Source of the DNA: a virus
Lineage: Monodnaviria; Loebvirae; Hofneiviricota; Faserviricetes; Tubulavirales; Inoviridae
DNA length: 8,398 nt
Virus record (IMG/VR): IMGVR_UViG_2603880148_000001
Direction: 5' to 3' (one strand)
Shown: piece by piece, positions 1,666-8,398 of the stretch
How the letters are laid out: every line of letters starts with the position of its first letter
Numbering within the stretch: position 1 is the stretch's first letter
Notes under the pieces: model-generated
Seen by the model: only the letters and a program-made list of their open reading frames with translations
The model's database searches: none
Told to the model about the DNA's origin: nothing
Program-made: the position numbers and the translations under genes

Positions 1666-1759
1666 AGTGCGCATAATGTGACACGCGTTATGTTGAAAAG
1701 GCCGCTGCGATACTCTCCACCGCAGCGGCCTTTTTATACATAACGTCATTGTGCGCACT
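1666..1759 (+). other. attP-like region: two inverted dif-like XerC/XerD sites flanking a GC hairpin; putative left prophage-chromosome junction
   Basis: Site A: AGTGCGCATAA (1666-1676), spacer TGTGACACGCG (11 nt), TTATGTTGAAA (1688-1698). E. coli dif is GGTGCGCATAA-TGTATA-TTATGTTAAAT; GTGCGCATAATGT is an exact 13-nt match. Site B, inverted (1732-1759): reverse complement reads AGTGCGCACAA-TGACG-TTATGTATAAA. Arms can pair 10/11 (1666-1676 with 1749-1759) and 10/12 (1688-1699 with 1732-1743), leaving an asymmetric 11 vs 5 nt bulge. Confidence 0.6.
1695..1735 (+). terminator. Rho-independent terminator-like hairpin downstream of hipA, also the tip of the attP-like fold
   Basis: Perfect 10-bp stem GGCCGCTGCG (1700-1709) / CGCAGCGGCC (1721-1730), 11-nt loop, then TTTTT (1731-1735); A-run AAAA precedes it at 1696-1699. 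Confidence 0.6.
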
Positions 1760-2011
1760 GAACCTTAAAGGATTTCAGTGTCCTTACTTAGTTTGTTGTG
1801 TATGGTCATCACCAACGGTAGGACAAGCGTTATCAGGCTGAATATTGTCATGCCTGTGATGCTGCCAACAACAAAATGCTTTATCAGCAGGTCAAGAATT
1901 AAGTCACTGGTTGTCTGCATATTGCTTTTTAGCAATCATGTAATACTGCACTTTTGTACCACGGGTGGTACTTTTTGCTCTTCTAGCAATCGCCAAATCG
2001 TTTTGTGATTA

Positions 2012-2200
2012 CTATTTTTTTTGTGTAATTTCATTTTTCGAAATCATATCTTGTTTTGCATCGTTTAAATATTCATCTATCAGATAATTCACGATCTCCG
2101 ACCATTTTGTGACTTTTCCTGTTTTGGCTGTGATATCTACGGCTGCTCTTTCTATTCTCAGATATCTCTCGTTGCTTATACCAATACTTTTCCTGCTCAT
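2012..2200 (-). CDS. Small DNA-binding regulator, ribbon-helix-helix-like (candidate phage repressor, RstR position)
   Basis: 62-aa minus-strand ORF, divergent from the rep gene. SD-like GGGAGAA about 6 nt upstream of the ATG on the minus strand. Pattern resembles RHH proteins of the ParD/CopG/Arc type: short beta-strand KSIGIS, helix NERYLRIERAAVDITAKTG, G-K-V-T turn, second helix KWSEIVNYLIDEYL. Function is inferred from fold pattern and position only. Confidence 0.6.
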   Translation of the reverse strand: MSRKSIGISNERYLRIERAAVDITAKTGKVTKWSEIVNYLIDEYLNDAKQDMISKNEITQKK

Positions 2201-2233
2201 TTTTTGTTCTCCCGTTCTTTTGGCTTAGTTTAA

Positions 2234-2322
2234 TGCAACATAGCAAAATTGCATTTGTGCACAATTGCACTTGTGCATCTGGTTTTTTTGTGTATTATTT
2301 TTGCAAGTTTGCACAATTGCAC
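2234..2322. promoter_or_regulatory. Iteron-like operator/promoter region between divergent regulator and rep genes
   Basis: TGCA(A/T/C) pentamers start at 2234, 2250, 2258, 2266, 2274 and 2302, 2310, 2318 (8-bp phasing; degenerate AGCAA at 2242). Exact 13-bp direct repeat TGCACAATTGCAC at 2258-2270 and 2310-2322, 52 bp apart. Candidate sigma70 elements: TTGTGC (2271-2276), 16-bp spacer, TATTAT (2293-2298). Confidence 0.5.
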
Positions 2323-2347
2323 GCGGATAAAGCATTTGGGGGGATTA

Positions 2348-5417: not shown

Positions 5418-5439
5418 AATCATACCAGGAGGGTTTTTT

Positions 5440-6825
5440 TTGATTCACTTTATTATTCCGCTTCTGTTTTTGTTCTTTTCCTCGTTTTCTTTCGCTGAAG
5501 AGAAAGAAAATCCGGATGCACTTGTTCAGTGTGCAGGCCATTCATCCTGCAGGACAGATTATTCGGACGCGGGGACGTCGATTAAATTAGCCAGGGCGGC
5601 CGGTCATCTTTTCTGTGGTTCGGGCAGTTATGACGCATGTTCCGGAATAATTCATTATTGTGGTGTGCCACTTTCCACGCCTGTTAATGCACCTTCGACT
5701 GTCGGGTCTTTTGTCCGTGCCCGGTGGTCAGCATATAAAGTCTGGGATTCAGACAAGCAAAAGTGGACAGCCTGCACCCTTGCTTTTCAGGGTGGTGAGG
5801 GGGATTTGACACCTGAATATAATAAGCCGGTTACCGAAGAAAATTGTCTTTCCCGTCCGGTAATTAAGGACTTTTCATATTCTCTTGGTGATGTTGTCTG
5901 GGTTGATACGGGTAACGGGCAGGAATCTCAGTCCCTGGAAATTAATGGCTGTCGTTATTTGATTGATTTTAACGAGTGTGATGACGACGGGAATTGTATC
6001 GCTCAAAGTATGCGTTCTGTTGGCGTGGCTGCCGCCAATAAAAATCCTGACGGCAATACAGGGAGTGGCTCTGGTTGTGACGACGACAATTGCGATAATA
6101 CGACAGGCTCTGGCGGTTCATCCGGCAGTGGTGGTTCAGGTTCTGGCTCCGGTGGTTCATCCGGTAGCGGTGGCTCCGGCTCGGGTTCCGGCGGCTCATC
6201 CGGCAGTGGTGGTTCAGGTTCTGGCTCCGGTGGTTCATCCGGTAGCGGTGGCTCCGGCTCGGGTTCCGGCGGCTCATCCGGCAGTGGTGGTTCAGGTTCT
6301 GGCTCCGGTGGTTCATCCGGTAGCGGTAGTTCAGGTTCAGGCTCCGGTGGCTCATCCGGCGATGACAATGGCTGGTTTGATGGTATTTTGGGCTGGTTAA
6401 AAACAATATGGGGTTCAGTGAATGATTTAAATAATACTTTTTCTGTTTCTCAGGATGATATTACCAGTGCGGTTAGTTCTTATGATTCACAGTTAAATGA
6501 ATTAATTCATTCTGTAACGCCTGAACAGGATGATATGTCTTCATTTGCTGACAGGCTTTTCAGTCTTCTTCCTGATGAGTGGCTTTATATTAATTTTGAT
6601 AAATTACTTTTAACTGGTGAACTGCGTCGTTCTGGTGCTCAGCCAGTTCAGATTGAATTTCCATTGCCGGGGATAAATGGGCTGTATTTTACAATTGACA
6701 CATCTGATTTTGCTTCAGCTTATGATGACATTATCAGACCTTTACTGGAGTATGCTCTTTATGCATTAACGACTTTACGTTGTTACTTTATTGTTCGTCG
6801 TGTTCTTTTTGTTGACAGGGGGTAA
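5440..6825 (+). CDS. Minor coat / adsorption protein (pIII-like)
   Basis: SD AGGAGGG (5427-5433) 6 nt before TTG start 5440. N-terminal signal peptide MIHFIIPLLFLFFSSFSFA, Cys-rich N-terminal domains, long Gly/Ser linker, hydrophobic C-terminal segment. Sits after the major coat gene as gIII does in inoviruses. Confidence 0.75.
   Translation: MIHFIIPLLFLFFSSFSFAEEKENPDALVQCAGHSSCRTDYSDAGTSIKLARAAGHLFCGSGSYDACSGIIHYCGVPLSTPVNAPSTVGSFVRARWSAYKVWDSDKQKWTACTLAFQGGEGDLTPEYNKPVTEENCLSRPVIKDFSYSLGDVVWVDTGNGQESQSLEINGCRYLIDFNECDDDGNCIAQSMRSVGVAAANKNPDGNTGSGSGCDDDNCDNTTGSGGSSGSGGSGSGSGGSSGSGGSGSGSGGSSGSGGSGSGSGGSSGSGGSGSGSGGSSGSGGSGSGSGGSSGSGSSGSGSGGSSGDDNGWFDGILGWLKTIWGSVNDLNNTFSVSQDDITSAVSSYDSQLNELIHSVTPEQDDMSSFADRLFSLLPDEWLYINFDKLLLTGELRRSGAQPVQIEFPLPGINGLYFTIDTSDFASAYDDIIRPLLEYALYALTTLRCYFIVRRVLFVDRG
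6112..6360 (+). repeat. In-frame 78-bp tandem repeat, about 3.2 copies, encoding a (GGSSGSGGSGSGS)n linker
   Basis: Copies at 6112-6189, 6190-6267, 6268-6345 and partial 6346-6360; the first two copies are identical and the third differs near its 3' end. The repeat generates spurious alternate-frame ORFs on both strands. Confidence 0.9.
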
Positions 6826-6827
6826 CA

Positions 6828-7184
6828 TTGTTTACTTTGCTTATCCAGTTCTTTGTTGCTTTTTTCATTGCGACATTTAAGCGTTTTTTGCCTTTTTTGG
6901 GGAAGTTGCTTCCATGGGTTTCAGATAATTTCAGGGTTTTATCTTATGTGACTTTTTCGGTGGGGCTTTTTGTTACGCTTATCCGGTCTTCTAATGAGGT
7001 TATTGATTTGGTTTCTTCTTCTGGTGTTGTTAACGATTATCTCAGGACGGGCTTTAGCTATTTACCTGACAACATCAGTCGCTGCGTTAATATTGTGTTT
7101 GCCACTGAGTTTTCTGCTTATGCTTATCAGCACAAAAACAAAATAATTAAAATGCTGTTTGATCGCGTTATTTTTAAGGGGTAA
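6828..7184 (+). CDS. pVI-like minor coat protein (hydrophobic, 118 aa)
   Basis: TTG start 6828, 2 nt after the pIII-like stop, with GGGGG SD-like run at 6817-6821. Very hydrophobic N-terminus ([17 protein letters not shown]...), size and position match gVI between gIII and gI. Stop TAA 7182-7184. Confidence 0.55.
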
Positions 7185-7186
7185 TC

Positions 7187-8398
7187 ATGCCAGTTATCAC
7201 CGGAAATCTGGGGCAGGGTAAAGGTATTGTCGCAGCTTATTTTGCCTCACTTTATTATCGCCGTGGATTACGGGTTGCGGCAAATTCTCCGCTTAACACT
7301 GAATATATGTCCTCAGGTTCGGATAACCCCGTCACGGTTATTCCGGCCATGCCCCGCATTGAAGACTTTGAGCTTCTTGGTCGTGGATGCCCTGAAAATG
7401 AAAAAACACGCTTCGGGGCGTTATTTCTTGATGAGTGTGCGACATGGCTGAATACCCGTGGTTTTGCCCGTAAGGACAGATTACCGTTAATTGACTGGCT
7501 GATACATTCCCGTAAGCTGGGCTGGGATGTTTATCTGATTTCACAGCATGAAGATATGATTGATTCCCAGATAATTAAGGCGATGGGGGCTAAAATTATT
7601 CGCTGCCGCCGTCTTGATGAATTACGTGTTCCTGTGATTACGCCACTGATGGAATTATTCAGACCAGGAAAAACAGGGGTTGCATCAGGCAAAAGGGGGA
7701 TTATTCCTCATTACGTGGCTGCCAGTACGTTTCTTTATGACGGCACGATTCACGCGGCACGTCGTCCCGTAGATAAAATCATTATCAGGGCTGCGGATTA
7801 TTACAACGTTTACGACACTAATTTCATTTTCTCTGACGGAATGGAGCTGCTTAATGGCCGTTTTGTGGATATGCGTGCTGTTTATTCCGTTTTGCCCGGG
7901 CGCACACTTAAAACAATGAATCCGTTATCTCAACAACCCGAAAAAAAGGCCACCCCACAGAAAAAGCCGTGGGGCAAGCTGATTGCCTTTCTTTTCCTCG
8001 TCACCGCGATGATTGCCGTTGCCCGACATTATTTCTCCGGCGATCGGGAGGTTAGTGCCGCTGTCCCTCCTGTGCCTGAAAGCACCGTGACACCTGCACA
8101 TCCTTTGCCTGCGTCTACGGTTGTATCAGAGCTGAGACAGAAAAAACCGGATGTGCTTCCGGTATCAAAGGAGTGGCGGCTTGCCGGATATGTCAGGGGA
8201 GCAAGTCCTTATTTTGTGCTGCTGGGTCCGGCGGGTCAGGTGCGACGTTATACCGCTTTTCAGCCATGGAACGGCAGCGCCACGGAACTGAATGTTGACG
8301 GTGAAAAAGTGACGTTCTGGTCAGGCTCATCGGGAACGGCATCAAAGGGGGATGTGCTGACTGACAAAATGCTTTCGTTTGATGTGAATGGTAAATAA
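7187..8398 (+). CDS. Filamentous phage assembly protein pI (Zot family)
   Basis: SD AAGGGG (7176-7181) then ATG 7187. Clear similarity to M13 gene I protein: [56 protein letters not shown]-terminal P-loop region TGNLGQGKG and a transmembrane segment [15 protein letters not shown]. Stop TAA 8396-8398. Confidence 0.9.

Follow-up and report, generated by a model that had tools for sequence, protein, structure and literature searches.

We identified the left 6.7 kb of an inovirus prophage, integrated in the Escherichia coli dif site beside hipA, in IMG/VR record IMGVR_UViG_2603880148_000001. This stretch of 8,398 nucleotides (nt), taken at its full length, is referred to here as the window. The element is a distinct, uncharacterised inovirus lineage. 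It is very likely a CTXphi-type prophage that exploits the host Xer recombinases by integrating as folded single-stranded DNA (ssDNA) and otherwise follows the standard inovirus plan. We found no published description of the phage. Its genes are labelled hypothetical proteins in RefSeq, and IMG/VR already catalogues 11 uncultivated viral genomes of this group.

The dif-derived junction begins exactly at position 1666, 76 nt past the hipA stop codon. This agrees with an earlier note, made from the letters of the window, that placed a filamentous prophage about 80 bp downstream of the hipBA operon. G+C content and AT skew shift at about 1600-2000. From position 1666 the junction reads AGTGCGCATAA (XerC arm), TGTGACACGCG (an 11-nt centre that replaces the 6-nt TGTATA of dif) and TTATGTTGAAA (XerD-like arm). 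We reconstructed a 190-nt empty site by joining the hipA flank, up to position 1676, to the sequence past the dif centre of E. coli strain 600029. More than 3100 complete E. coli genomes contain this empty hipA-dif site uninterrupted. The element is thus a precise insertion at dif, and the mis-assembly that the earlier note held out as a danger to its reading is excluded. The phage-free strain ATCC 8739 has a left flank identical to that of the window and the same A allele of the XerC arm. This phage-free genome also rules out the idea that the first base (A) of the attL arm was contributed by the phage.

Strain 600029 was isolated from Bangladeshi stool, and its locus (L001) is 99.5% identical to the window. 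In this strain, the far end of the element is closed by a regenerated dif (AGTGCGCATAATGTATATTATGTTAAAT, L001 22447-22474; 0 chance matches expected), after which the chromosomal genes yneL and ydeT follow. The second att site that the earlier note anticipated past the window is therefore present. A secretin gene, also anticipated there, is present as well (402 amino acids (aa), PF00263, E 9e-25) and ends 53 nt before dif. Cargo genes, which the same note advised looking for there, do not follow the secretin in strain 600029, and no toxin cargo was seen in the element. No open reading frame (ORF) from hipA to dif contains a recombinase domain in the strain 600029 annotation or by Pfam. The prophage is 8781 bp long in this strain, and elements of the group span about 8.3-8.8 kb, a size that fits the Inoviridae-type range of about 5-15 kb.

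The attP cassette and probable single-strand integration

The left end of the element carries two inverted dif-like sites separated by a G+C-rich stem-loop (Table 1). Inovirus genes are read on the packaged strand. The genes of this element lie on the window plus strand, which is thus the packaged strand. A phage-phage junction gives the sequence of the circular attP, which on this strand folds into one long hairpin (-40.9 kcal/mol, vs -14.0 +/- 2.5 for shuffled sequences; z = -10.6). The hairpin comprises 15 bp over the XerC arms, a 6-nt bulge (TGACAC), and paired XerD arms and G+C stem. The stem-loop forms the tip of this hairpin and is shaped like a two-way terminator.

Allelic differences in E. 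coli TD225-C4 (Mexico, stool) place the crossover. This strain carries at least three head-to-tail copies beside hipA (unit 8328-8330 bp). Its attL carries a chromosomal G-allele arm (GGTGCGCATAA). All its phage-phage junctions carry the phage A-allele arm (AGTGCGCATAA) after phage sequence CCACAACGTC. Both kinds of junction run into the phage centre TGTGACACGCG. The crossover is thereby confined to the stretch bounded by base 1 of the XerC arm and base 4 of the centre, in the XerC cleavage region.

Several features of the locus are those of integrative mobile elements exploiting Xer (IMEX). First, a hybrid site and an inverted site stand at one end, and a regenerated dif stands at the other. 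Second, the two inverted dif-like sites pair on the (+) strand and have XerC and XerD arms with an imperfect centre. Finally, the element is inserted in the chromosomal dif and encodes no recombinase of its own. In CTXphi-type elements, folded (+) ssDNA lets XerC exchange one strand pair with dif, which yields one new functional dif and two dead sites (PMC3089051, PMC4266046). The shared attP architecture, junctions and hairpin assign the present element to this type.

In the resulting model, a region of about 95 nt on the packaged (+) strand would imitate a dif duplex by folding into a bulged hairpin. Host XerC would swap a single strand pair of this hairpin with dif where the XerC arm meets the central region, and the insertion would then be fixed by replication. 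The product would be a dead hybrid site with an 11-nt centre beside hipA, then the second inverted site. A functional dif would be regenerated at the far end and would allow further insertions. Double-stranded attP would be masked, and the prophage would not be excised through Xer. New genomes would come from Rep-driven rolling-circle replication across tandem copies, as in CTXphi, and a solitary copy such as that of strain 600029 would be trapped. The small divergent repressor would act on repeated operators upstream of Rep. Morphogenesis would draw on genes in the Ff order, with the phage supplying its own secretin. We infer XerC-only catalysis, irreversibility and a need for tandem copies to make progeny.

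Several observations weigh against this reading. First, two motifs deviate from expectation. The metal-binding HUH motif of the replication initiator Rep (window 3515-3547) is H-W-N rather than the H-H-H of RstA, and the Walker A motif of the assembly ATPase pI (7202-7225, GNLGQGKG) ends in GKG where GK[ST] is usual. H-W-N is invariant throughout the lineage, and the Walker A glycine is invariant in 20 of 20 aligned homologues, down to 35% identity. This lineage-wide conservation suggests that both deviations are probably tolerated. Second, the centre of the hairpin, with five paired positions and a 6-nt bulge, differs in detail from that of CTXphi. Third, the window stops at the pI stop codon (8398), so for copy number and right end the only source is the 99.5%-identical genome of strain 600029. 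The two sequences differ by 45 substitutions, all in the phage part (within 2323-8185); the first 2322 nt, which hold hipBA, attL and the repressor, are identical. The substitutions cluster at 2842-2950 and 5199-5217, suggesting patchy recombination among phage variants and not uniform divergence. Finally, the one copy in strain 600029 could not yield progeny under the model, and as to virions, replicative form and XerC dependence the element is known from sequence alone.

An alternative is that the window copy is a trapped or domesticated prophage that makes no virions and is carried as a passenger at dif. This is consistent with the nearest genome, in which a single copy ends at dif, since a single copy cannot make circular progeny under the CTX model. 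The split pI in one of the three TD225-C4 copies points the same way, as do remnants with only Rep and p141 (the gene after Rep) in about 15 genomes. We nevertheless consider a trapped prophage unlikely. All ten ORFs of the window are intact, and codon differences from three relatives are mostly synonymous (synonymous:nonsynonymous 28:7, 51:23 and 58:33), a pattern that argues for purifying selection on the genes. In other strains, tandem arrays and the heteroimmune and pIII variants point to a phage that was recently active and is spreading.

Much less probable is integration of a double-stranded replicative form in the manner of VGJphi or TLCphi, with one dif-like site serving as a reversible attP and the inverted pair being incidental. 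Each site on its own does have good XerC and XerD arms, and the G+C stem-loop could be a plain terminator, with terminator-like hairpins listed nearby. However, the centres are 11 nt and 5 nt rather than the 6 nt of dif. The two sites are also mutually complementary, arranged as in pre-CTX, and fold far better than shuffled sequences. Moreover, the cassette is conserved between otherwise unrelated phages together with its non-binding spacer, and the homologous sites of the filamentous phages CUS-1 and Ypf-phi have been assigned to the ssDNA route (PMC3089051, PMC4266046). These observations favour single-strand integration.

Gene content of the prophage

The inovirus gene set that the earlier note placed after hipA was recovered by ORF, Pfam and PHROG analyses (Table 1). 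The likeness that it expected between Rep, coat and pI and inovirus proteins lies above curated cut-offs for Rep and pI and is weak for the coat. Its description of the gene order as CTXphi-like holds for the divergent repressor, the RstA-type Rep and attP, but the order fits Ff/M13 equally closely.

Rep matches the PHROG family annotated 'nicking at origin' and is 29% identical to pre-CTX RstA over 464 aa (E 3e-58). It keeps the tyrosine motif YxxKY, as YIVKY, and is a rolling-circle (HUH) initiator of the kind expected in Inoviridae. Translation likely starts at the GTG at 2348, just after GGGGGGA. In P2, the origin sits inside gene A. The Rep of a sister phage described below is 98.5% identical, yet everything to the left of Rep is missing there. 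The (+) origin is therefore probably part of the DNA from Rep to the secretin that both phages have.

The next gene, p141, occupies the position of gene V/RstB, for which the earlier note had suggested an ssDNA-binding product. The gene position stands. The best indication from Pfam is a match to G5P below the cut-off (E 0.076). An AlphaFold model built with a 14-sequence alignment has a predicted local distance difference test score (pLDDT) of 37, and neither a PDB profile search nor an hhalign comparison with RstB returned anything. The ssDNA-binding role of p141 thus remains positional. Homologues of p141 are limited to E. coli-like sequences, and tblastn gave no match among 50,697 phage records.

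A 62-aa protein divergent from Rep is the probable repressor. Its AlphaFold model has an extended N-terminus and two helices, which is compatible with a ribbon-helix-helix fold. A Foldseek search of this model against PDB gave no significant match. The corresponding allele in TD225-C4 is only 47% identical, indicating a swappable immunity region. Taken together, divergent orientation, operator-like repeats, the AlphaFold model and allelic replacement between variants point to this protein as the likely repressor. A small ORF lies between the attP cassette and the repressor and is 94% conserved in TD225-C4 despite the replaced immunity region.

As expected for Inoviridae, a small coat gene and a block of small membrane-protein genes precede pIII, pVI and pI, and hydropathy gives the signal peptides and membrane helices expected of morphogenesis proteins. 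The coat precursor has a signal peptide ending in ASA, an acidic N-terminus, a hydrophobic core and a basic C-terminus. The Gly/Ser linker of pIII is encoded by 39-nt repeats (6106-6360), and the N-terminal and middle parts of pIII vary between variants. The pI/Zot-family ATPase, another hallmark of Inoviridae, matches the PHROG family 'protein I of M13'. It consists of an N-terminal P-loop domain, a membrane helix at about residues 261-283 and a periplasmic C-terminus, with hydropathy among the evidence. Its C-terminal half has no FCIGRL motif of the Zot toxin, and the 'Zot' label here denotes an assembly ATPase only.

Table 1. Features of the window, in order of position (ORF, open reading frame; TRF, tandem repeat search program).
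Feature	Position	Strand	Basis
hipB	1-267	+	Chromosomal context; ORF list and RefSeq annotation of the 99.5%-identical locus of strain 600029
hipA	267-1589	+	Chromosomal context; ORF list and RefSeq annotation of the strain 600029 locus
attL XerC-binding arm AGTGCGCATAA, chromosomal origin	1666-1676	+	Same flank and arm in ATCC 8739 dif
Phage centre of attP site 1, TGTGACACGCG, 11 nt	1677-1687	+	First 3 nt, TGT, equal the start of the dif centre TGTATA
XerD-like arm of attP site 1, TTATGTTGAAA	1688-1698	+	9/11 matches to dif
G+C-rich stem-loop between the dif-like sites	1696-1734	+	Repeat search (perfect 14-bp stem, 11-nt loop); fold
attP site 2, inverted dif-like: AGTGCGCACAA, TGACG, TTATGTATAAA	1733-1759	-	5-nt centre; repeat search; pairs with site 1 in the (+) fold
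Small ORF, 51-56 aa, one predicted membrane helix	1765-1935	-	ORF list, hydropathy; unannotated
Putative repressor, 62 aa, divergently transcribed	2012-2200	-	phrog_2503, E 1e-28; AlphaFold pLDDT 84
Operator-like repeats, GCAAAATTGCACTTGT x2.2 and TTGCACAATTGCAC x2, between regulator and Rep	2243-2322		TRF and repeat search
Rolling-circle Rep, P2 gpA/CTXphi RstA family, 666-670 aa	2336/2348-4348	+	PF05840, E 7e-49; phrog_91, E 9e-129
p141, 141 aa, gene V/RstB position	4379-4804	+	ssDNA-binding role from position only
Membrane protein, 46 aa, single helix, pVII/pIX-like position	4809-4949	+	ORF, annotation, hydropathy
Membrane protein, 56 aa, single helix, pVII/pIX-like position	4942-5112	+	ORF, annotation, hydropathy
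Major coat precursor, 80 aa	5137-5379	+	Sequence features, hydropathy; weak phrog_17608 match, E 1e-3
pIII-like adsorption protein, 461 aa	5440-6825	+	Signal peptide, Gly/Ser linker; ORF, hydropathy, repeats
pVI-like minor coat protein, 118 aa	6828-7184	+	phrog_1944, E 4e-10; position
pI/Zot-family assembly ATPase, 403 aa	7187-8398	+	PF05707, 36.3 bits (cut-off 20.3); phrog_1675, E 5e-49

In strain 600029, the 787 bp after pI hold a 339-bp unit repeated about 2.2 times. The fold of this unit has no unusual stability (z = +1.5). We also observed a 57-nt element (CCGCTCGCCGCAGACCCAGCGACCGAACGTAGTGAGCGAGTGGTCGAGGAAGCGGAA) in the region between gI and gIV (L001 20412-21146; L002 13095-13150), with three copies inside the tandem repeat of strain 600029. 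About 300 small ColE1-type plasmids have, between rop and the origin, an element with at least 93% identity to it. Its polarity on the plus strand of the phage is that of the active single-strand initiation site. It is presumably also about 82% identical to the ssiA/n'-pas region of pMB1, a likeness that serves as a lead only. This ssiA-like element is a candidate PriA-dependent minus-strand origin. In the TD225-C4 variant, an unrelated hairpin takes its place. Rfam scans of the window, the strain 600029 and JNE070796 loci and a small plasmid gave no match at the gathering threshold.

Several IMG/VR contigs of this phage group (L017, L018, L021 and L022) end at or near the pI stop codon, as the window does. 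These ends probably reflect short-read assemblies that break at the repeated or plasmid-shared intergenic element downstream.

Distribution, variants and a possible portable cassette

The phage is rare. We identified its backbone by blastn in 42-54 of 5426 complete E. coli genomes, and in 42 complete genomes that carry it the location is always chromosomal. Truncated remnants that keep Rep and p141 only make up the roughly 15 genomes mentioned above. Megablast of the element against the 50,697 phage records gave no DNA match. Relatives of pI from E. coli and E. albertii reach 83-98% identity; a further group follows at about 55%, and those from Salmonella and Edwardsiella stand at about 40%. 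A scan of GTDB species representatives with a pI profile found six loci, none of them close. The best of these, from Salmonella diarizonae (39% identity), has no pair of dif-like sites at its pI locus.

The TD225-C4 variant has an attP cassette and small ORF 99% identical to those of the window and differs in the immunity region and the middle of pIII. In copy 1 of its array, pI is split into two coding sequences (L004 23331-24502); copies 2 and 3 are intact.

We also observed a sister phage in E. coli O166:H15 JNE070796 (L002 5863-15347) and at a further locus (L003). From the start of Rep to the secretin, pI included, its identity is 95-98%, sharing window positions 2351-6461 and 7169-8398 at 95-97% identity, and its pVI is only 27% identical. 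The sister phage lacks the attP cassette and repressor and instead carries an IS110-family ('RNA-guided') transposase (PF01548 and PF02371). The transposase gene ends 3 nt before Rep and has about 160 nt of non-coding DNA upstream. A DUF2726 gene follows the secretin. The sister phage sits between hcxB and ybiB, flanked by an imperfect direct repeat of about 19 nt of the target, and its left junction occurs in 26 of the 5426 genomes. Judged from these sequences, the lineage is a mosaic whose integration, immunity and receptor-binding modules are exchanged among inoviruses.

The attP cassette is more widespread than the backbone. We identified it at full length in 230 of the 5426 complete genomes, mostly at 83-87% identity and of the CUS-1 type. 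We also observed an unrelated small element that lies in tandem behind this phage via the same cassette (L015 5654-8429, a contig of GCA_030002875.1). This element encodes a 70-aa divergent regulator, a Rep_trans initiator and a 111-aa protein, and its arrangement resembles the mixed CTX/RS1/TLC arrays at the V. cholerae dif. Since the cassette occurs on this phage, CUS-1 and the Rep_trans element, it is common to at least three unrelated replicons. The stem-loop, which binds no protein, is conserved in all three. In the sister phage, an IS110-family recombinase, of the bridge-RNA type, stands in place of the cassette-plus-repressor module.

From these observations we tentatively suggest that the attP hairpin of about 95 nt may be a portable 'dif-docking cassette' that moves between unrelated E. 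coli ssDNA replicons. With the IS110-swapped sister phage and the ssiA-like element, this could make for a plug-and-play lineage. If so, a single phage chassis would allow Xer hijacking to be set against RNA-guided recombination.

A 70-nt part of the cassette was additionally found on the 150-kb plasmid NZ_CP062858.1 (L028 4001-4069) and at about 480 other plasmid places. This part comprises the XerD-like arm, the G+C stem-loop and the inverted dif-like site, and it is nearest the CUS-1 version (84% identity). Its neighbours are an IS200C remnant and a gene of the STM4504/CBY_0614 family. An old Xer-mediated insertion may have left it behind as a scar, or it may be a Xer-related site of the plasmids. 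We considered whether this half-cassette travels with a homologue of CUS-1 orf1 and ruled this out, as there is no protein similarity.

In Vibrio cholerae, Yersinia pestis and extra-intestinal E. coli, filamentous phages inserted at dif are carriers or modulators of virulence. The present lineage adds a second, unrelated dif phage, harboured by E. coli of human stool and of collections of diarrhoeal isolates (Bangladesh, Mexico and Japan). Its practical value is as a tractable model, in E. coli, of CTX-type single-strand integration. Leads of greater interest are found just beyond the window: the possibly portable cassette, the sister phage with its IS110-family gene and the ssiA-like element of plasmid type.

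Comparison with known filamentous phages

The earlier note left undecided whether the element is CUS-1 or Ypf-phi, and the comparison places it in a distinct lineage. CUS-1 and Ypf-phi share 99% identity over 7.1 kb, and tandem copies of Ypf-phi have been reported (PMC4266046). We compared the element with the CUS-1 copy beside hipA in UTI89 (O18:K1:H7, L005). This copy encodes two cargo ORFs, a helix-turn-helix (HTH) regulator, a gene II/X-family Rep, a DNA-binding protein, small proteins, pIII, a DUF2523 pVI, a 341-aa Zot protein, a secretin and two small ORFs. The two phages occupy the same chromosomal site. Their attP cassettes align over the full length of about 95 nt, 11-nt and 5-nt centres included, and have an identical G+C stem (AAAAGGCCGCTGCG/CGCAGCGGCC). 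Both encode a secretin, which alone among 12 phage proteins matches UTI89 CUS-1 by tblastn (43% identity, E 1.5e-99).

In other respects, the two phages differ. The ssDNA-binding, coat, pIII, pVI and pI proteins have no BLAST similarity. CUS-1 carries the cargo genes orf1 and orf1a at its attL end, whereas the present phage has only the 51-56-aa ORF there. The backbone, II/X Rep, RstR-like HTH regulator and puvA-type pIII that define the CUS-1/Ypf-phi lineage are absent from the present phage. The shared site, the homologous cassette and the related secretin notwithstanding, there is next to no chance that the element is a copy or close variant of CUS-1 or Ypf-phi, as Rep, p141, the small proteins, coat, pIII, pVI and pI have no tblastn similarity, the Rep families (PF05840 gpA, 666-670 aa, vs II/X, 350 aa) and regulators (62 aa vs a 148-aa HTH protein) differ, and the backbone occurs in far fewer genomes than the full cassette.

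The best matches among deposited phages are the Vibrio phages fs2 and VFJ and inoviruses of V. cyclitrophicus, both for Rep (29-33% identity) and for pI (32-35%, in the ATPase domain). Rep is 29-33% identical to its counterparts in fs2, VFJ, Shewanella phage Dolos and CTX (RstA), and pI is 31-35% identical to those of Vibrio inoviruses, fs2 and f1. However, the similarity to the Vibrio phages is distant, the host differs and p141 is unmatched in deposited phages.

The Ff phages (M13, f1 and fd) share the gene order II-V-VII-IX-VIII-III-VI-I-IV, a Gly/Ser-rich linker in pIII and a secretin of their own with the present phage, and pI is 30.7% identical over 60% of its length. In contrast to the present phage, Ff phages do not integrate, have a Rep of another family and have no repressor. 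The (-) origin of Ff is an RNA-polymerase hairpin, whereas the present lineage has the ColE1 ssiA-like element between gI and gIV.

CTXphi and pre-CTX (Affertcholeramvirus, Vibrio cholerae) differ from the present phage in several respects. The present phage encodes a secretin and counterparts of two small virion-cap proteins. Its att sites are separated by a spacer of 36 nt, against about 90 nt in pre-CTX, its p141 is unrelated to RstB, it has no toxin cargo and its host is E. coli. Protein identity to CTXphi is 30% or less, so the two do not belong to the same genus; the close core-gene relatedness and lack of a phage secretin that mark Affertcholeramvirus are not found here. In its mode of integration, the present phage nevertheless resembles CTXphi. 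Both integrate at dif without a phage recombinase and regenerate dif at the far end. The attP of pre-CTX consists of AGTGCGTATTA, a 12-nt centre and TTATGTTGAGG, then a spacer of about 90 nt and an inverted site with a 6-nt centre. In both phages, a long-centre site (11 nt here, 12 nt in pre-CTX) thus lies next to attL and is followed by a short-centre inverted site, and the two attP regions occupy the same end of the prophage and face the genes in the same direction. The Rep proteins belong to one family (29% identity to RstA). Both phages form tandem prophage arrays and have a small divergent repressor in a swappable immunity region. The tandem and mixed arrays of the lineage also parallel the CTX/RS1/TLC arrays of V. 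cholerae. The mechanism is thus a known one, and what is new is the lineage itself.

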